Source: a virus. Taken from it: a stretch of 6,589 nt of DNA. The DNA is taken from IMG/VR virus record IMGVR_UViG_3300045988_019679, positions 1 through 6,589 of that record. One strand, given 5' to 3'. The notes beneath the pieces are model-generated. The model made no database searches. It was not told the DNA's origin and worked only from the letters and a program-made list of their open reading frames with translations. The first letter of the stretch is position 1; the number at the start of each line of letters is the position of its first letter. This document shows, in pieces, positions 1-6,589 of this stretch. The translations under genes were made by a program, and so were the position numbers.

Positions 1-55
1 CGGTAGAAACAAAGGCTGCCAATTCCGGGAAACCAGCTAAAGGTATACGAACGAC
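1..55. repeat. Terminal direct repeat, copy 1 (circular-contig assembly overlap)
   Basis: cggtagaaacaaaggctgccaattccgggaaaccagctaaaggtatacgaacgac is identical to 6535..6589, and it lies inside the VP1 reading frame. Confidence 0.95.
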
Positions 56-742
56 AGGATTGGTTGTTTCCTGATTGCTTATAAAATCATACCGAAGAGC
101 ATTAACAGGAGTCTTACAACCGTAATAATTAGGAACTACAGGACCCTTTTCGACGAGGATAGAAGATATATCGGAACCTTGTAGTGCTATAATCTTATTA
201 ATCGTTTCCGAGATACCACTTACATTTCCAAGATGCGTAAACGCCAAAGTTCCAAAAGAAGAAGGTTGATTTGCAGCATAAAAAGGTGTGCGAAGAATTC
301 CTTTAGTTTCAGAACCATAACTTCCAGTAATAGTAGTAGGTACGCCAAGATAATCAGCAAGTGTTCCGGTCTGCAAGTCGTCAAGAATATTGAACTGTTT
401 ATGCCCTTGTGGAGTATCTTCGGCAGTAGGGTCAATCCAAGGAGGCGTAACGGTCTCATCACCTCCGAAGAAGGACATCCAGTCTTCCCAAAGAGTACGG
501 GTACGAACATAAACAAAGTGTAACCGCACATAAAGTTGAGTCTGTATCGGGAATACAGTCGGAAGTAACTGCAAGTTGAAACGGGCGTTTATCTGAAACG
601 AATCACCAAATGAAGCAGGGAGCAGACACACAGGGGTGATTGCTCCAAATTTCATTGTCAAATTGTTTACAAAAGACAAGTCGAACGTAGAACGATTGAC
701 GCGGTCTATGTATGAGTCTTTTTTACGAAATATGTTTGCCAT
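1..742 (-). CDS. VP1: Major capsid protein VP1 (phiX174 F-like), N-terminal 247 codons. The ORF runs off the window start and continues in frame at 6534 (position 1 = 6535).
   Basis: I translated the minus strand by hand from ATG 742..740: MANIFRKKDSYIDRVNRSTFDLSFVNNLTMKFGAITPVCLLPASFGDSFQINARFNLQLLPTVFPIQTQLYVRLHFVYVRTRTLWEDW... There are no stops down to base 1. The R-x-x-FDLS...T...G...P...LP..GD pattern is the canonical microvirus capsid N-terminus. Frame arithmetic (742 and 6535 are both codon starts) joins it to ORF 5024..6556. It is missing from the ORF track because it has no stop inside this window edge. Confidence 0.93.
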   Translation of the reverse strand, partial: MANIFRKKDSYIDRVNRSTFDLSFVNNLTMKFGAITPVCLLPASFGDSFQINARFNLQLLPTVFPIQTQLYVRLHFVYVRTRTLWEDWMSFFGGDETVTPPWIDPTAEDTPQGHKQFNILDDLQTGTLADYLGVPTTITGSYGSETKGILRTPFYAANQPSSFGTLAFTHLGNVSGISETINKIIALQGSDISSILVEKGPVVPNYYGCKTPVNALRYDFISNQETTNPVVRIPLAGFPELAAFVST

Positions 743-744
743 AA

Positions 745-945
745 TCAAAAGTTAACATTAATGTCAGGAGTCTTTAAAGTATCCACACGCGTAGTAGTAG
801 ACTGTTGCGTGCCTTGAGAGGAATTCTGGTTTTTCCAGAATAAGGACATAGATGCAGTGCAACTATCCAGAAGAATAGCCGCGGCTACTCCAAGAATGAA
901 AGTAGTCGCGTGCTCTATAATCTTATATATCTGCTGCTTAGTCAT
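745..945 (-). CDS. 66-aa small protein with one predicted transmembrane helix (MTKQQIYKIIEHATTFILGVAAAILLDSCTASMSLFWKNQ...). Function unknown; candidate membrane or lysis-related protein.
   Basis: Internal ATG at 945..943 of the 745..1116 track ORF. It overlaps the end of the 74-aa ORF as ATGACTAA. Its stop, TGA at 747..745, lies 2 nt before the VP1 ATG (TGA-TT-ATG). The hydrophobic stretch is TTFILGVAAAILL, and third-position T bias matches the neighbouring genes. Confidence 0.55.
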   Translation of the reverse strand: MTKQQIYKIIEHATTFILGVAAAILLDSCTASMSLFWKNQNSSQGTQQSTTTRVDTLKTPDINVNF

Positions 946-1162
946 TTTCCGGCTCAATAAGATATTGTTCAAACATACCGTCCGGCAACTGACGATCAGT
1001 AACGATAAGCTGCATAGCTGCAGAGAGAGGAATGTGTTCACGAACAACAACAATAACAGGCATCTCTTCCTGAGTAGAAAGGAACTTGCGAGTTGTAAAA
1101 GTAACACGAGGTTCATTGTCTTGCGCTGTAACTGAACAGCAATCTACATTTAATTTTGTCAT
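938..1162 (-). CDS. 74-aa hypothetical protein
   Basis: ORF-track entry. Codons mostly end in T, like the recognised genes. It is packed between the 59-aa and 66-aa ORFs. I recognise no motif. Confidence 0.55.
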   Translation of the reverse strand: MTKLNVDCCSVTAQDNEPRVTFTTRKFLSTQEEMPVIVVVREHIPLSAAMQLIVTDRQLPDGMFEQYLIEPEND

Positions 1163-1174
1163 AATGTAAAAATT

Positions 1175-1354
1175 TTAAGTAAAACAAAAATTATTAGATA
1201 GAACTACCAAATAGTCATCTTGCATGAGACCAGGTAATTCGAAGTTTACAAACAATATGTATTCATCCAGCGTGTCAAAAGTACGATAAGAAATCTTATC
1301 TTTTTCGTAGTTTAACATCGTCTTCGGATAAATCTTAGCATAAATGTACGGCAT
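1175..1354 (-). CDS. 59-aa hypothetical protein, absent from the ORF track (probably below its length cutoff)
   Basis: Hand translation from ATG 1354..1352: MPYIYAKIYPKTMLNYEKDKISYRTFDTLDEYILFVNFELPGLMQDDYLVVLSNNFCFT, with stop TAA at 1177..1175. The start lies 2 nt after the VP4 stop (TAA-CT-ATG), the same junction form seen at VP1/103-aa and 66-aa/VP1. Confidence 0.5.
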   Translation of the reverse strand: MPYIYAKIYPKTMLNYEKDKISYRTFDTLDEYILFVNFELPGLMQDDYLVVLSNNFCFT

Positions 1355-1356
1355 AG

Positions 1357-1375
1357 TTACAAAGTTTCTTTGTAA
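1357..1375 (-). promoter_or_regulatory. Hairpin TTACAAAG-TTT-CTTTGTAA covering the last VP4 codons and its stop codon
   Basis: 8-bp perfect stem with a 3-nt loop. The minus strand reads TTACAAAGAAACTTTGTAA, with the TAA stop as the last 3 stem bases, followed by CT-ATG of the 59-aa ORF. Confidence 0.5.
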
Positions 1376-2754
1376 ATAGCAAGAATGTTCTCACTATCTG
1401 TCTTATATTTAACATAAGTTATATCTATCTCGGGCAAAGTTGACATATATTCACTCATAAACTCATGATGTTCACGTTTAGCTGCGGTCATCTTCTTGTA
1501 ATAATCAAGGTCAAATTCGTAAGCTTCAAGCATAGCCAAAAGAGGCTCAAGAATGTGTTCCATAACAATAAGGCTGTCCTCATGATGAATGGCGTAGAAG
1601 TTTTTCGCATTGTCAAAAATAAAGCGAGGGAAGCGATGTACACAGGTGTCGAAGTTGTAAAAGGGGAACTTTTCTCCAAGCCATTTACGGGTGATATTAA
1701 CCTCTTTATCAGGCATATGGAGATGTATCTGCCAAAGACATGCGCGAATTGACAAGAAATAGTCTACCAACTGAATAGTATCACGAATTTCTTTGCGAAT
1801 AAGCAGAGAAGGCGTGGGGTAGAGTTTCCGGCGAAAATAAGAGGGGATGTATGACGTAAAACGTTCACCTGTGAACTTATCGACAATCTCAACAGTCAGA
1901 ACGTCAGGATGTTGATAAAACCAAAGAACGTGGTCAAGACACCATTTGTAACCAAGACCGCCGCCGCGGCGGGAGGATAAGTAAAAAGTGGGCTTGCAAC
2001 CTGCAGGAACATCACTTTCTTTACGCATATATTTCATGCAATATTGAATGCCGCCTTGAGTACAAGGCTTGCAATAAACAAAACCAAGTTCACCTACATA
2101 ATCCCAATCAAAGCGATGAGTAAGTTTATTATAGACTCGTTTTCGAGCAGACCAAGCCTGATGAACAATTTTATACACATCCATAGCAGACATGTTAATA
2201 GGCATATTCCAAAGAATAAGGTGATAATGAGGCAATTTCGTATGGCTGCCATACTCAGCGGCGGCAAAATACCGTATCTTTTCAGTATAATCATAATCTC
2301 GAGTGAGAATCTGACGCAAACGTTTAAGAAAATCTTGTACATGTTTTTTATCTACGCCGTCAACAGGACGATTCGCAGGATTATAAGTCAGAGTGATAAA
2401 GTAAGGGACGGAACGAGATGATTGTGTTTCAGCAACAGCGCGAAACATCCATTCACGGGCATTTCTTTTTCGACAAAGAGCACATTTACGACAAGGAATT
2501 GCCAAAAACATAGGTACGGCATCATCGTCGCGATCAATGGCGTAATAGCTATCTTGATATGAAGCAAAGTTCTGAGAATCAATAGCTTTCGGAGAAAACA
2601 AAGCGTATGGAAAATTCCAGCGCCATGCGGCAAGTTGCATTTCCGGAACAAAAGTTGCATTTCCGTTGTAAACATATTTTCCTGTTCTCAAAAGTGCATC
2701 CTTAAATGCAGGATTTAAAATGTATTTCGGTTTTTCACAAAGAATATTTGACAT
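1357..2754 (-). CDS. VP4: Replication initiation protein VP4 (phiX174 gene A-like HUH rolling-circle endonuclease), 465 aa
   Basis: Motifs seen in the translation: Cys cluster CRKCALCRKRNAREWMFR, motif 1 FITLTY, HUH motif LPHYHLILW, and the paired catalytic tyrosines YCMKYMRKE (Y-x-x-K-Y). An in-frame TAA at 2763..2761 blocks upstream extension. Confidence 0.95.
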   Translation of the reverse strand: MSNILCEKPKYILNPAFKDALLRTGKYVYNGNATFVPEMQLAAWRWNFPYALFSPKAIDSQNFASYQDSYYAIDRDDDAVPMFLAIPCRKCALCRKRNAREWMFRAVAETQSSRSVPYFITLTYNPANRPVDGVDKKHVQDFLKRLRQILTRDYDYTEKIRYFAAAEYGSHTKLPHYHLILWNMPINMSAMDVYKIVHQAWSARKRVYNKLTHRFDWDYVGELGFVYCKPCTQGGIQYCMKYMRKESDVPAGCKPTFYLSSRRGGGLGYKWCLDHVLWFYQHPDVLTVEIVDKFTGERFTSYIPSYFRRKLYPTPSLLIRKEIRDTIQLVDYFLSIRACLWQIHLHMPDKEVNITRKWLGEKFPFYNFDTCVHRFPRFIFDNAKNFYAIHHEDSLIVMEHILEPLLAMLEAYEFDLDYYKKMTAAKREHHEFMSEYMSTLPEIDITYVKYKTDSENILAIYKETL

Positions 2755-2775
2755 AGTTTTTTATTTTTAATTTGG

Positions 2776-2840
2776 GCGTCCGGGCGGGCTATCCGCTCAA
2801 ACAAATCGGCTTCGCCGATACTCGCTCCTATCCCTGACGC
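2776..2840 (-). promoter_or_regulatory. GC-rich nested helix element in the VP4 leader: outer helix 2776..2784 / 2832..2840 enclosing hairpin ATCGGC-TTC-GCCGAT (2805..2810 / 2814..2819)
   Basis: gcgtccggg pairs with ccctgacgc (8 of 9 positions, one mismatch). The inner 6-bp stem is perfect. CTATCC occurs at 2789..2794 and 2828..2833, on either side of the inner hairpin. Confidence 0.4.
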
Positions 2841-2949
2841 GCTTCACTTCGTTACGCAATATATACGGAGGCGTCATCCAAGATGACAGAGAGGTGTTCG
2901 CGCTACCGCGCTCACGATTTCATAATTTCCTTTTATCTCTCAAGATGTG

Positions 2950-2957
2950 CAAAGATA
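2950..2957 (-). promoter_or_regulatory. Candidate -7 box TATCTTTG upstream of VP4 (no good -33 TTTG)
   Basis: The 8-mer is the same as in the 94-aa ORF promoter. It sits about 195 nt upstream of the VP4 ATG and is overlapped by the inverted repeat TTTATCT (2932..2938) / AGATAAA (2953..2959). Confidence 0.4.
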
Positions 2958-2993
2958 AAGTGTAGGCTAAAATATCGTTTATCAACCTGCGCC

Positions 2994-3033
2994 AAACTAT
3001 GTTAAAGTCGCTACGCTTGGTTTAACATAGTTT
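2994..3033. repeat. Perfect 13-bp inverted repeat AAACTATGTTAAA / TTTAACATAGTTT with a 14-nt loop (GTCGCTACGCTTGG)
   Basis: Read directly from the sequence: arms at 2994..3006 and 3021..3033. Direct repeats CGCCAAAC flank it at 2990..2997 and 3043..3050. Confidence 0.9.
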
Positions 3034-3157
3034 ACCACAGAACGCCAAACGCTATTTTTTCCTACGCATTGTTTTATTGCACGTCTCGAAAGAAAAAAGG
3101 AAAAATATGCTTTGATGTTTGCGATAGATAAGAGACAGAATGGATAAGAACGCAAAC

Positions 3158-3174
3158 CGAAGTTGGGAACTTCG
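3158..3174 (-). terminator. Hairpin CGAAGTT-GGG-AACTTCG. On the minus strand it is followed by GTTTGCGTTCTT; possible terminator after the 94-aa ORF or an ssDNA origin hairpin.
   Basis: 7-bp perfect stem with a 3-nt loop. The downstream tract is T-rich but imperfect. Confidence 0.35.
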
Positions 3175-3208
3175 TAGGGCTGTAGCCTTATAAGAGTTAT
3201 TGGGCAAG

Positions 3209-3227
3209 GCAGCCCAAGAAGGGCTGC
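3209..3227 (-). terminator. GC-rich hairpin GCAGCCC-AAGAA-GGGCTGC about 60 nt downstream of the 94-aa ORF stop; possible terminator, with no clear U-tract
   Basis: 7-bp perfect stem with a 5-nt loop. Each arm can also pair with other nearby segments (see findings). Confidence 0.35.
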
Positions 3228-3284
3228 TCATTCAAATCTTTCACACAAGCTGAGCAATGTGTCAGTTGTGCTACTTATATCAAG

Positions 3285-3569
3285 TTAGTCGATGCCGGAT
3301 GTTTCACCCGGTCCACAAGTTATCCGACAAAAGTCGGAATAAGATAGTTCTTCAATCACCTTGCGATTACAATACTGAGCATCTATTATGCCTACAAACA
3401 AGAATGAAGACTTGTATGATTCTTCCATATAATCTATAAAAGTAACAGCTCGATCATCCATGCGTTTATGATTAATTGCTTGGTAAATAGTATTGCAATC
3501 TATACCGGTTACCTTAACAAATACTTGTTTCTGTTTTCTAATGCTTAAAAACTGTAAAAGAATGTCCAT
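3285..3569 (-). CDS. 94-aa hypothetical protein with a possible N-terminal helix-turn-helix (AlpA/Xis- or XRE-like), preceded by its own promoter
   Basis: ORF-track entry. The segment KQVFVKVTGIDCNTIYQAINHKR resembles the V-x-x-x-TG[ILV]-x-x-x-T[IL]Y-x-x-I pattern of small phage HTH proteins. A Bacteroidetes-type promoter lies 50-80 nt upstream. Codon usage has visibly more A-ending codons than the structural genes. Confidence 0.5.
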   Translation of the reverse strand: MDILLQFLSIRKQKQVFVKVTGIDCNTIYQAINHKRMDDRAVTFIDYMEESYKSSFLFVGIIDAQYCNRKVIEELSYSDFCRITCGPGETSGID

Positions 3570-3615
3570 AATCGTAATGTTTTAAGGGTTTATAATCTTG
3601 TTTCTTTCAACACTA

Positions 3616-3647
3616 CAAAGATAGACATTCTTTATAATTTATCCAAA
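3616..3647 (-). promoter_or_regulatory. Bacteroidetes-type promoter for the 94-aa ORF: -33 TTTG (3647..3644), 20-nt spacer, -7 TATCTTTG (3623..3616)
   Basis: The minus strand reads TTCTTTGGATAAATTATAAAGAATGTCTATCTTTGTAG. This matches the Bacteroides sigma-AB consensus TTTG-N19-21-TAnnTTTG. An inverted repeat ATTCTTT/AAAGAAT (3627..3633 / 3645..3651) overlaps the -33 box and spacer. Confidence 0.6.
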
Positions 3648-3666
3648 GAATTCTCGTTAAAAAATG

Positions 3667-4710
3667 TTATTCTTTCGAAGAACGAGGATTAGTAAAAGGC
3701 ACAAAAGATGCAACATCACGGAGAACCAAATGAAGCTGTTGCATACTTCGTTCGAACTCATTCCAATTTTGATCCTGTAGCAAGTCAAAACGGAGACGGT
3801 CCGTTTCTGCACTCACCTTAAATCCAAGAGATTCATAAAAAGACGATAAGGCCTGATTACGTTTCTCATCAGACTTCATAAGAGGCAGTTTTCCAGCAAG
3901 TTCTTGAAAGGCAAGTTTAAGTTGCTCCTTAGAGACATCTAACTGACCTTGCATAACCTTAAGCTTACCATGTTCTATGAAAGAATCCAAAGCTACACGA
4001 ACGTGACGCTCCCAAATGCGAGAATCAACATCAGCAGCATTAGAAATCAAAAGGTCAACCTCAGATTTAATCTTACCAATAGTAGCATTAATTTGTTCAA
4101 CCATACTACGAGCTTGAGAAGCCTGAGAATCGTTAAGGTTAATCTTGCTACCGTTAACAAGAATAGTACTCTCAATAGTATCAAGCTGGCCTTGATTAAA
4201 CGCATCACGAAATGAAGCATCAGAAGCGAGAATGTCATTCGTATGTTTCTGACCCTCAGTTTCAGCATTAGTCTTAGCAACTTGAGCGGATAAAGCAGTA
4301 TCCGCAATAGCTTGAGAAGCAACACTACCAAGAGGTTTATAACGATTCCAGGCAGAAGTATCAGCAACAGGACCAGACGGAGTATGTCCGCCTTGAGCCT
4401 GAATAGAAGATCCTTGCAAGGCTCCGTTGGTAGCATACAAATCAGGATTGATTCCAGCAGCTTTCAAACGAGCCTGGACAGCAGCAGGAGTATTATACTC
4501 ATTATTAGCCTGCCAAAGCTGATAATTCCAATCATTCTGTGCCTCTCGTTCAGAGGTCTGCCATTTACGGGTCTTCTCAGCTTCTTCACGCGCCGCCGCG
4601 ATCTGTTTTTTGACAGATTGATTCTGAGAATGAGCGCCAAATAAATTAGAAATGCCGGAAAGTGCGCCACCAATTAGCGCACTACCAGCACCTGCAAAAA
4701 AACTTCCCAT
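3667..4710 (-). CDS. VP2: Minor capsid / DNA pilot protein VP2 (phiX174 H analogue), 347 aa
   Basis: Gly/Ala-rich N-terminus (MGSFFAGAGSALIGGALSG), then the VP2 signature NNEYNTPAAVQARLKAAGINPDLYA, followed by a long coiled-coil-like Q/A/S-rich region. The start overlaps the upstream stop as TAATG. Confidence 0.88.
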   Translation of the reverse strand: MGSFFAGAGSALIGGALSGISNLFGAHSQNQSVKKQIAAAREEAEKTRKWQTSEREAQNDWNYQLWQANNEYNTPAAVQARLKAAGINPDLYATNGALQGSSIQAQGGHTPSGPVADTSAWNRYKPLGSVASQAIADTALSAQVAKTNAETEGQKHTNDILASDASFRDAFNQGQLDTIESTILVNGSKINLNDSQASQARSMVEQINATIGKIKSEVDLLISNAADVDSRIWERHVRVALDSFIEHGKLKVMQGQLDVSKEQLKLAFQELAGKLPLMKSDEKRNQALSSFYESLGFKVSAETDRLRFDLLQDQNWNEFERSMQQLHLVLRDVASFVPFTNPRSSKE

Positions 4711-5021
4711 TACTTCAACTGTTTACGCTTTTCATTGTAGGCGGCTACAATCTTAGCGCGAGCATCACGTTGAGCATTCCAAACATCAGCAATATCCTGG
4801 CCTCGACGATATTCAACAGGAACAATCCACGATTCCTCATCAGTAAAATCATCGGAAGGTAACTGTGAGATATTCTGCGAAGAAATAGGTACACCAGCTT
4901 TAGCAGCTTCATACATCTGGGCGGGAGTGTAAGCAAGGTCGCCACGTACAGGAAGTTCGCCCGGTTTCCGAGTACATGTACACGTATGCGTGTTCCAAGC
5001 ATGAATTACTACTTGTTTCAT
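4710..5021 (-). CDS. 103-aa hypothetical protein between VP1 and VP2; function unknown (scaffold-like role is only a guess)
   Basis: ORF-track entry. Its ATG lies 2 nt after the VP1 stop (TAA-TT-ATG) and its stop overlaps the VP2 ATG. It has the same T-ending codon bias and contains YTPAQMYEAAKAGVP, which resembles the VP2 motif. Confidence 0.65.
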   Translation of the reverse strand: MKQVVIHAWNTHTCTCTRKPGELPVRGDLAYTPAQMYEAAKAGVPISSQNISQLPSDDFTDEESWIVPVEYRRGQDIADVWNAQRDARAKIVAAYNEKRKQLK

Positions 5022-5023
5022 AA

Positions 5024-6589
5024 TTATTCAATATGAGGAATTGAGTTACGAGGTATAGTTGTTTTCTTAGTAATATCAAAAGCAATACTACCTAGAATCT
5101 TATCACCACTTTCAGAAGTCATAGCAAACACATCATTGACATGATCTGGATTTACGAGCAAAAAGTCCTTAGACAACTCAGGGGCTTTATCAAACACACG
5201 ATTGATAAGGAAGTTTCTCATAGAACCACGGAATTCACCATGTACTTCATCGAATGACGAAATCAAATCCCAGTATGCACGTTGATAACCAAATACATTG
5301 TTAACATTTGCGGGATTCACAGCATAAGCCTGATAAGGACACAAATGCTTATACAACATAGGCTGATAGCTTATATTGTTGAACTGAGGGAAATGCCAAT
5401 CCAAAAGGTTCATACGGGTGAAATGAGGCGGCAACAGCTGCGAATAATTTGCAGCAGGTACGACAGACATGACACCAAGAATGTAGCCTTCTTCAGGACA
5501 ATACTTGCGAATAACATGACGCATGCCAGACTGAAGCGAGCCTTGACCGGCAAAACTACCTAAAGGATTTCCTTCAGTAGGGGTTGTCTGGGTTACCTTA
5601 TATACAGGAATAGTGTCAGAAATACCACCAAGGAATTCGGGCATCATAAGCTCATCATAGTCCAAATTCACATCAAAGAGGCCTTTTACAAGGTTCTTGT
5701 AACGCGGAGATTGACGAACACGAATCTCAAGGAAACGCTGAAGAGAGTTAACATTTCGGAAGTCAGAAATAGAGATACCAGATGTGGCCATACCGAGAAG
5801 GTTACGAACAACGTCAGCAGGAGCATTGGAACTCTTAACCTGGAAGCCTGTAACAGTATCACCATCTTCAGCAGTCTCAAGTTGAGCATGATACTCAACA
5901 CCAGCAGCATCTCTAAAGGTAGCCTCTCCAAGAGAAGTGATACCTACAAGAGGCGCGACACCAGCCTGCGGAGATTGCAAAGCGGTAGTGTAAGCATCAG
6001 GCTCCCAATTAGCATAACGCAACTGATATTTATACGTATCAGAACCGCCTTTCGTAGAGGGGACATATTTGTTATATTCAGGTTTACCATCAACGATAAA
6101 GGGATTGTTACGAATATCACGGCCAAAGGCATTGTAGTAAGATTCGTATGCACGAAATGGCAAGGCGGATAGGGGAATGGCCGGAAATCGGTTGGTAGTA
6201 GAAGTATAGAAAGGACAGTTTGCAGCTACAGGTTTTGTCCACTCATTTGAGGCCATAACGGCTGAAACCGGCAATTTATTAAATAAATCCAAAAATTTAT
6301 CAAAAATACCGTACCATTTGATACCTCCAGAACCAACATAAAGAGCGGATAAAACATCAGTTTCTGGGGTTCGTCCGTTTTGATATTCTATTAATAAATA
6401 AAATGTAAAAGACGACACAGCCGAACCGGCATTGAAAGATAATTCTATACAATCATCTTTTATAGTTGAATTGTCAATTTTTCCGCAAAAATCCGCAACA
6501 TTACCGTTTAGAGAGAATATGCAACCCAAACGACCGGTAGAAACAAAGGCTGCCAATTCCGGGAAACCAGCTAAAGGTATACGAACGAC
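5024..6589 (-). CDS. VP1: Major capsid protein VP1, C-terminal part (6535..6589 duplicates 1..55). The full protein is 750 aa across the circular junction.
   Basis: Long ORF with the microvirus capsid motif LSALPFRAYESYYNAFGRDIRNNPF. The track's M at 6556 is actually a TTG (Leu) inside the protein (...GFPELAAFVSTGRLG...), an artefact of linearisation. The stop is TAA at 5026..5024. Confidence 0.93.
   Translation of the reverse strand, partial: VVRIPLAGFPELAAFVSTGRLGCIFSLNGNVADFCGKIDNSTIKDDCIELSFNAGSAVSSFTFYLLIEYQNGRTPETDVLSALYVGSGGIKWYGIFDKFLDLFNKLPVSAVMASNEWTKPVAANCPFYTSTTNRFPAIPLSALPFRAYESYYNAFGRDIRNNPFIVDGKPEYNKYVPSTKGGSDTYKYQLRYANWEPDAYTTALQSPQAGVAPLVGITSLGEATFRDAAGVEYHAQLETAEDGDTVTGFQVKSSNAPADVVRNLLGMATSGISISDFRNVNSLQRFLEIRVRQSPRYKNLVKGLFDVNLDYDELMMPEFLGGISDTIPVYKVTQTTPTEGNPLGSFAGQGSLQSGMRHVIRKYCPEEGYILGVMSVVPAANYSQLLPPHFTRMNLLDWHFPQFNNISYQPMLYKHLCPYQAYAVNPANVNNVFGYQRAYWDLISSFDEVHGEFRGSMRNFLINRVFDKAPELSKDFLLVNPDHVNDVFAMTSESGDKILGSIAFDITKKTTIPRNSIPHIE
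6535..6589. repeat. Terminal direct repeat, copy 2 (circular-contig assembly overlap)
   Basis: Exact 55-nt copy of 1..55, running to the window end. Confidence 0.95.

Follow-up and report, generated by a model that had tools for sequence, protein, structure and literature searches.

The 530-nt gap upstream of VP4 in a microvirus genome: a candidate viral-strand origin, a long hairpin and a structured element shared with tailed phages and plasmids

The DNA analysed here, positions 1 to 6,589 of the IMG/VR virus record IMGVR_UViG_3300045988_019679 (the window), is the complete, circular genome of a gut microvirus; a terminal direct repeat of 55 nucleotides (nt; 1-55 = 6535-6589) gives a true length of 6534 nt. 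All genes are encoded on the minus strand, and in Microviridae the gene strand has the sense of the packaged DNA, so that we refer to the minus strand as the virion-sense strand. Between the gene for a protein of 94 amino acids (aa), p94, and the replication gene VP4 lies a gap of 530 nt (3284..2755). A joint explanation in four parts, according to which this gap is the cis-acting control region of the phage and consists of separable modules, is the one we lean towards. The modules discussed below include an origin-like block at the upstream edge (block A), a long imperfect hairpin and a junction element just before VP4 (block B).

The gap and its surroundings

VP4 (2754..1357) encodes a rolling-circle Rep that matches PF23343 and phrog_942 (replication initiators), and its motifs HYHLILW and YCMKY are those of a cognate HUH Rep with two catalytic tyrosines. 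It is followed in gene order by small open reading frames (ORFs), by VP1 (751 aa; 742..1 plus 6534..5024, wrapping across the window ends), by a 103-aa ORF, by VP2 (4710..3667), which matches pilot-protein PHROGs, by a second gap of 97 nt (3570-3666) and by p94 (3569..3285), which ends with the stop codon TAA at 3287..3285. Judged by its sequence conservation, p94 is a genuine gene: it was found by tblastn with 42-82% aa identity in most relatives, and it is missing in L023, L028 and Dulem virus 258. The gene evolves fast (73% nt identity), yet it is conserved, and it belongs to no Pfam or PHROG family. In the 97-nt gap the proximal part is 75-86% conserved, and the distal part is variable with many indels.

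An earlier note on this DNA had described the 530-nt gap as ORF-free and had estimated that both gaps together leave about 10% of the genome non-coding; the actual value is 627 of 6534 nt (9.6%). The ORF list does contain three small ORFs in the gap, one of 40 aa on the plus strand (2883-3005) and two of 52 aa (2997-3155) and 59 aa (3052-3231) on the minus strand. The description as ORF-free nevertheless stands, because in relatives all three are hit by indels that are not a multiple of three. That the gap codes for a small protein, for instance with the 59-aa ORF (3231..3052), is extremely improbable. The ORFs exist mechanically, and the 59-aa ORF begins with ATG and is located on the coding strand, but it carries a 2-nt deletion in 12 relatives as well as a 9-nt deletion and a 28-nt insertion, and 1-nt indels are present in the 40-aa and 52-aa ORFs. 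In addition, substitutions pair across hairpin arms and show no codon-position pattern.

Among the regions compared, the gap is the most conserved part of the genome: the mean nt identity of 16 relatives to the window was 91.5% for the gap, 84.4% for VP4, 82.6% for VP2 and 73.4% for the 94-aa gene. Folding of the gap as single-stranded DNA (ssDNA) yielded -98.5 kcal/mol for the virion-sense strand compared to -67 kcal/mol for shuffles (z -5.7) and -93.8 kcal/mol for the plus strand (z -5.75), thus both strands fold far better than shuffled sequences. At least five perfect hairpins had been predicted, and five perfect inverted repeats of 7-8 nt were indeed found next to imperfect ones with arms of 55 nt and 27 nt; the short direct repeats were recovered by a repeat search, and the GC-rich segment corresponds to 2774-2840, with a GC content of 0.64 compared to ~0.41 for the genome. 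Alignment with relatives, which the note had proposed as a check, revealed very strong conservation, compensatory changes in most hairpins and no conserved ORF, so that the proposal of a structured region was not refuted. The suggestion that a known structured RNA is encoded here was not supported, as a covariance scan of the gap with Rfam 15 gave no match at E up to 10. A scan for tRNA and tmRNA found none, and a scan of the gap for sigma-70 promoters remained at chance level.

A candidate viral-strand origin and a long hairpin

Block A (3229..3316) extends past position 3284 to ~3316 and covers the last 32 nt of the 94-aa gene. In a BLAST search against GenBank phages the region had two short matches, both in DNA of distant microviruses that carries no annotation, and one of these islands is block A. 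In Dulem virus 258 and SH-CHD12, viruses with a VP4 that is only 50-52% identical, an intergenic stretch without annotation is 87% identical to block A, and in both it is located directly after VP2. Per-bin conservation in 24 relatives is 86-100%, and invariant in all of them is TAACTTGATA (3278..3287), a candidate cleavage motif for the VP4 Rep. The motif lies between two hairpins, in a spacer that reads CATCGAC-TAACTTGATA-TAAGTA. Since its TAA (3287..3285) doubles as the stop codon of the 94-aa gene, the element extends beyond the boundary drawn in the earlier note. The hairpin 5´ of the motif, CCGGGTG-AAA-CATCCGG (3295..3311), was seen in the fold; of 23 distinct relatives, 12 have C-G and 11 have T-A as its second pair, which thus covaries. 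The hairpin 3´ of the motif has 12 bp (GCACAACTGACA/TGCTCAGCTTGTGT, 3243..3271) and one G.T pair on the virion-sense strand; it is invariant in the relatives and kept in Dulem virus 258 and SH-CHD12.

The phiX174 record has its rep_origin annotated at 4306 within CAACTTG^ATATTAATAAC. The exact 10-mer AACTTGATAT is common to the gene-A cleavage site of phiX174 and to the window, where it occurs once (3286..3277), and TAACTTGATA agrees with the phiX174 decamer CAACTTGATA at 9 of 10 positions. Of the 86 microvirus-like loci collected, 46 have ACTTGATA on the coding strand and 11 on the opposite one; the form found in other clades is TAACTCGATA. An arrangement of hairpin, 5-12 nt, TAACT[T/C]GATA, ~10 nt and hairpin recurs in ~10 divergent clades with unrelated stem sequences, and thus block A is probably the viral-strand origin. 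Two comparisons weigh against this assignment: the whole 30-nt phiX174 origin matches at 20 of 30 positions without gaps, a value reached by 5% of shuffled genomes, and past the core only 10 of 19 positions agree. The case for an origin, which comparison supports well, is therefore built on the core motif, on where it is placed and on how well it is conserved. A literature search with the origin decamer returned unrelated primer sequences only.

By analogy with phiX174, a nick is predicted between G3281 and A3280. From the motif, its position and its conservation, which are seen directly, we infer that VP4 would cut the virion-sense strand at TAACTTG^ATA (3281|3280), in the single-stranded stretch between the two hairpins, and that rolling-circle synthesis would start and end at this site. 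The earlier remark that HUH Rep proteins commonly nick at or near stem-loops is supported by this putative phiX174-type motif, which straddles the upper boundary of the gap between two hairpins. A second TCGGATAACTTG is present at 3316-3327 on the minus strand, 35 nt upstream of TCGACTAACTTG (direct repeat D5); it contains a further copy of TAACTTG (3322..3316), is located within the 94-aa gene and shows lower conservation. Possibly, it serves as a secondary site for Rep binding or termination.

Alpavirinae-like microviruses are among the commonest phages of the human gut, and to our knowledge no origin has been defined for those of the gut. TAACT[T/C]G^ATA between hairpins would be a directly testable viral-strand origin for this group. 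The phiX174 cleavage motif would then be much older than the coliphages and spread far beyond them.

The long imperfect hairpin (2921..3109, minus strand, ~69 bp, 190 nt) has arms at 3109..3022 and 3005..2921, and its tip is a mini-hairpin, AGCG-TAG-CGACT (3017..3006), that contains GCGTAGC. It was recovered in three ways, as inverted repeats I1 and I2, in the single-sequence fold and in the alignment fold of 23 relatives. Double changes were found at five pairs, including a swap of two pairs (CT/AG to TG/CA) in nine relatives. On the virion-sense strand about five positions are G.T and none is A.C, which points to folding on this strand, beyond a mere palindrome of the duplex; summed over all helices of the gap the ratio of G.T to A.C positions is about 7:0.

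In the 3´ arm of the long hairpin, with a 3-nt bulge, lies TATCTTTG (2950..2957, minus strand), which matches the Bacteroidetes -7 box TAnnTTTG. This box had been pointed out before; a pattern search confirmed it and revealed an identical twin on the minus strand of the 97-nt gap (3623..3616), 47 nt before the ATG of the 94-aa gene. TATCTTTG at 2957..2950 is a candidate for the VP4 promoter box in the double-stranded replicative form (RF). The earlier note had expected that transcription from here would include part of the gap in the VP4 leader. If the box is used, this applies to the 3´ arm of the long hairpin, and the 5´ arm stays upstream of the start. As the 5´ arm is located between the terminator-like hairpin described below and this start, ssDNA is favoured over RNA as the folded species, with read-through being possible.

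According to our proposal, the long hairpin would help to turn the incoming ssDNA into double-stranded RF, similar to the RNA-polymerase-dependent minus origins of M13 and ssoA plasmids or to Frpo, and in the RF the TATCTTTG box would serve as promoter for VP4. We consider the chances that the hairpin is such an element for single-strand conversion and promotion to be evenly balanced. Several points weigh against it: the hairpin is clade-specific, with Dulem virus 258 keeping block A and lacking the long hairpin; TAnnTTTG is not enriched genome-wide (10 compared to 6.95 expected); no -33 TTTG is found at the canonical spacing of 19-21 nt from the -7 box; and, as the virion DNA is of mRNA sense, the strand bias cannot tell ssDNA folding from RNA folding. 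The suggestion that the gap contains a complementary-strand origin is plausible with regard to the virion-sense bias of the long hairpin and the location of block B near single-strand promoters of the F plasmid (see below); however, no homology to the G4 origin was found with the covariance model of block B.

The long hairpin might instead be a folded single-strand attP, in which inverted dif-like arms pair to form a substrate for XerC/XerD as in CTXphi, allowing integration into a Bacteroidales chromosome. The top of the hairpin is a perfect palindrome of 12 bp, AACTATGTTAAA/TTTAACATAGTT, and resembles TTATGTTAAAT, which we take to be the sequence of the XerD arm. The phage encodes no integrase, and the location upstream of VP4 fits as well, since dif-like att sites were described upstream of Rep in Bacteroidetes proviruses, some with a second inverted copy, and a parallel to CTXphi was drawn (Krupovic and Forterre, PMC3091885). 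However, the best match to E. coli dif is an unremarkable 15 of 28 positions, and in nine relatives two pairs of the palindrome are swapped in a compensatory way (CT/AG to TG/CA), which fits structure better than recognition by a protein. Furthermore, a search for proviruses of this clade found none: a scan of genomes led to a free 6.7-kb contig in a Chitinophaga assembly, and longer contigs with VP4 relatives were chimeras or a tandem dimer. We regard an attP function as rather improbable.

Some of these contigs deserve a description of their own. L175 (= L030, NZ_QTJV01000041.1) is a free relative of 6689 nt with a VP4 that is 79% identical, filed within the Chitinophaga silvisoli assembly; it is possibly a hint to the host or a contamination. 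L177 (10001-11437) and L178 (541-1512) contain VP4 fragments that are 85% and 78% identical, respectively, and form in-frame fusions, with RnfE in L177 and with an AraC-type regulator in L178, both in an ordinary bacterial neighbourhood; they are either assembly chimeras or decayed insertions. L179 (GCA_005524035.1 PXZU01000154.1; 11.2 kb) is a head-to-tail dimer of a ~6.1-kb microvirus and no provirus.

Smaller hairpins on the minus strand complete the gap. GCAGCCC-TTCTT-GGGCTGC (3209..3227) is supported by fold and covariation: five of its seven pairs are changed on both sides and none is broken in 23 relatives. CGAAGTT-CCC-AACTTCG (3158..3174), followed by GTTTGCGTTC, was flagged by a terminator scan; one of its pairs changes from G-C to C-G or A-T in relatives, and its counterpart in Dulem virus 258 is AAACTT-CCC-AAGTTT. 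This terminator-like hairpin (3174..3158) probably ends the long transcript that would run from VP4 to p94. Closer to VP4, GCGC-GGTA-GCGC (2911..2900) has one pair with a compensatory change and GTCATC-TTG-GATGAC (2887..2873) two.

Block B in phages and plasmids

Block B (2774..2840, minus strand) is a junction element of the form GCGTC-A-GGGAT-[hairpin with CGGC-GAA-GCCG]-AGCCCG-CCCG-GACGC-CC, and an A-rich leader (2755..2773) separates it from the VP4 ATG at 2754. By comparison of sequences from many replicons, it represents a new structural family that is well founded and strikingly distributed. The consensus consists of a stem P1 (GCGTN/NACGC), an unpaired A, GGG/CCC across an A/G mismatch and a helix that leads to a variable domain, followed by AGCCCG, an optional hairpin, the closure of P1, CC and an A-rich tail. 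A covariance model (R1) built from 83 diverse members recognises the window copy with 58 bits (E 6e-11) as its sole hit in the window. In these 83 sequences 99.9% of the cells are paired, and the covariation score is 0.274, compared to 0.058 for shuffles (0 of 500 reach it) and a maximum of 0.091 with slid controls. The search pattern fixes eight of the ten pairs, which leaves two informative ones, both clean. The free (fifth) P1 pair is C-G in 53, T-A in 48, G-C in 13 and T.G in one of 115 distinct instances, and another pair shows all four Watson-Crick types.

In 101-105 of the 115 instances folding is better for the motif strand than for the complementary one. Loops are mainly GNA triloops, and the junction nucleotides are invariant from 33% to 65% GC. 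The base after block B is A in 34 of 49 GC-rich cases, the base before it is never G, and the A-rich tail persists in GC-rich replicons. The 200 nt located 5´ of the element fold more strongly than those located 3´ (-34.1 vs -23.5 kcal/mol, p = 1e-11, n = 90). A form with an extra hairpin dominates in tailed phages and plasmids, whereas the window copy is reduced and has CCCG instead; in L011-L017 and L006 the extra hairpin (CCCC-TTTA-GGGG or CGGC-TTTA-GCCG) is placed between AGCCCG and the closing stem. Rfam 15 has no family over block B in the window (E up to 10), nor in L060 and L066. Ribozymes (HDV-like, twister, pistol, hatchet), riboswitches (ykkC, guanidine-III, ZTP, preQ1) as well as integron attC and relaxase nic sites were judged by eye and dropped, as either strand order or motifs disagreed and Rfam gave no hit.

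The second island found in the GenBank-phage BLAST was 2840..2774, that is block B, and the matching microviruses have it between VP1 and the next gene; with one variant of block B as query, GenBank phages gave no BLAST match. A search with an exact 20-mer found 39 IMG/VR contigs, and a degenerate pattern was found in at least 120 contigs, many of them 20-60 kb long, with GC contents from 33% to 65%. The covariance model detected no copy in Dulem virus 258, SH-CHD12, L018 and L025. From this distribution, block B is accessory and movable. For the orientation we counted loci with VP1 or VP4 homologues: 45 distinct microvirus instances lie on the coding strand, with a median distance of 29.5 nt to the start codon, and 14 of 59 (at least five lineages) lie on the non-virion strand, in gaps down to 104 nt. 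The idea that block B is always located on the virion strand was rejected because of these 14 instances.

In tailed phages and larger contigs the neighbours of block B include TerS, TerL, ERF, ArdC-N and HNH genes, and clustering of the neighbouring genes revealed no single conserved partner. Among 44 larger contigs, 17 have a co-oriented gene downstream of block B, and in 32 of 43 cases the gene upstream of it runs antisense. In the 28-kb tailed-phage contig L044 (2459-2640; L039 is alike) block B is followed by a hydrophobic ORF of 37 aa, MLKKWFNSLYPTQQGYIILGLIMLTIAFILHLLGIIK, and a clean intrinsic terminator, a unit that is altogether antisense to the flanking capsid-protease genes. A similar hydrophobic ORF of 75 aa is located just past block B in L054. 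Taking all cases together, neither a strict ssDNA role on the virion strand nor an RNA role in 5´ untranslated regions (UTRs) fits every occurrence of block B.

Block B also occurs on enterobacterial plasmids. The 50%-GC variant of block B was found in E. coli at 4,418 places on plasmids compared to 54 on chromosomes, and the copy from F matches 4,085 PLSDB records, 3,106 of which are predicted to be conjugative. Two plasmids carry block B within their conjugative leading region, flanked by ardA and ssb/psiB, all of which are encoded on the other strand. The F plasmid (NC_002483) carries two copies, at 58091-58172 (64 bits) and 63479-63560 (53 bits), both on the transferred strand (T-strand), the minus strand of the record. 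In both cases the distance to the first gene of a unit in the leading region is 471 nt; one unit begins with ssb and the other with a gene pair next to oriT, and Frpo2 and Frpo1 have been assigned to these units (Couturier et al., PMC9849209). The order on the T-strand is the gene complement, a long Frpo-type hairpin and block B. Block B is not mentioned in the papers on Frpo and ssp consulted here (including PMC9849209), and a plasmid BLAST with window positions 2760-2860 (block B and flanks) returned nothing. What the phage shares with plasmids is block B only, as found with the covariance model. 'Hypothetical protein' ORFs or pseudogenes are annotated over block B and the Frpo-type hairpin in L176 (F, NC_002483; 7808-8164, minus strand), L172 (5842-6065) and L173 (4843-5065); these ORF calls are probably spurious and the DNA structured and non-coding.

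Possible roles of block B and comparison with known systems

We propose that block B acts on single-stranded or extruded DNA beside hairpin promoters, where it might be a priming site, a roadblock for the polymerase or a folding aid. Such a role at the DNA level is preferred over an RNA role, with a confidence that stays slightly short of even. Still more tentatively, block B could be an uncatalogued structured element of different replicons, an 'entry' device of incoming phages and plasmids that is read by a universally conserved host machine. Some findings weigh against a function at the single-strand stage. Block B is dispensable, since L018 and L025 have it deleted and L030 has a degenerate copy; dsDNA tailed phages, with genes for terminase and capsid, carry it as well; and none of the Frpo sequences in the list of Samuel et al. 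includes it. In particular, the reading as a single-strand origin is less likely because the orientation varies among microviruses. Possibly, block B functions as extruded DNA in the supercoiled RF, as an independent RNA or as a selfish element.

An RNA function would make block B, perhaps together with the small hairpins before it, a 5´ UTR element, a processing signal (tRNA-like or ribozyme-like) or a small non-coding RNA; in the window phage it would shape the VP4 message just before the start codon. This appears rather unlikely to us, with some observations in its favour: the 45 coding-strand instances close to start codons, the position of block B within the VP4 leader if the -7 box at 2957..2950 is used, its occurrence in dsDNA tailed phages including the L044 copy with its small hydrophobic ORF and terminator, and the invariant junction nucleotides and A-rich 3´ tail, both typical of functional RNAs. 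The Rfam 15 scan, however, found no match even at E = 10, and on F and the two other plasmids block B is antisense to every neighbouring gene of the leading region. The larger contigs point in the same direction, as only 17 of 44 have a co-oriented downstream gene and the upstream gene is mostly antisense, and the 14 microvirus instances antisense to all genes are located in gaps that leave no space for a promoter of their own. No terminator follows block B, and GNA triloops dominate rather than GNRA or UNCG.

It might also be that block B is a selfish or module-boundary element that was spread by recombination between phages and plasmids and is of little use to the phage, and that the conservation of the gap reflects in part recent exchange rather than selection. 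Its patchy occurrence among close relatives, the position that varies by clade (before VP4, after VP1, before VP2 or after VP4), the two orientations, the location at operon boundaries in tailed phages beside the genes named above and the several copies per plasmid agree with this. Yet covariation keeps the fold from Bacteroidota-type replicons to those with 65% GC, which needs sustained selection, no target-site duplication or association with a transposase was seen, and the remaining gap is equally conserved where block B is deleted. We consider both parts of this explanation to be improbable, the RNA function being the likelier of the alternatives.

The Frpo regions flanked by block B are currently studied for early plasmid establishment and for anti-defence expression. 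If block B acts at the single-strand stage, it would link the entry biology of phages and plasmids and offer a new handle on the establishment of resistance plasmids; if it is an RNA, it would be a new and widespread class of phage and plasmid RNAs.

Block A resembles the viral-strand origin of phiX174 and G4 in the core AACTTGATA(T), located on the virion-sense strand in one copy per genome, and in the HUH two-tyrosine type of the Rep. In phiX174 and G4 the motif lies inside the Rep gene, whereas here it is intergenic, between hairpins and overlapping a stop codon, and the similarity to the phiX174 origin is weak after the first 11 nt. The complementary-strand origin of G4 (primase site, nt 3884-4019) and the PriA (n´) site of phiX174 are, like the elements described here, intergenic hairpins on the virion strand of a microvirus. 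For G4 a difference was seen: even with the filters switched off and E values up to 10 allowed, the block B model R1 did not detect anything in its genome (L174). With the minus origin of M13/fd and with ssoA origins the long hairpin shares the orientation-specific, long folded ssDNA in the non-coding part of a rolling-circle replicon. The terminal loop TAGCGA resembles the CS-6 sequence of ssoA, which we take to be TAGCGT, a weak likeness of a 6-mer, and we know of no minus origin of the M13 or ssoA type that has been characterised for Bacteroidota-like hosts. The dif-like att sites of Bacteroidetes microviruses and the attP of CTXphi have in common with the long hairpin the location upstream of Rep, the lack of an integrase and an inverted repeat that can pair in ssDNA; different are the lack of a significant dif match and of a recovered integrated relative.

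A further parallel is found in the Frpo and ssi class-1 ssDNA promoters of F and ColIb-P9 (Masai and Arai 1997; PMC9849209; PMC11541004; PMC12672017). The long hairpins of the two systems have no sequence similarity, and the phage box is of the Bacteroidetes -7 type without a clear -33 partner. Shared are a long imperfect hairpin on the entering strand and, as a candidate in the phage, a promoter box within its stem. In addition, in both F units block B follows 3´ of Frpo on the same strand, which is also the order of long hairpin and block B in the phage.

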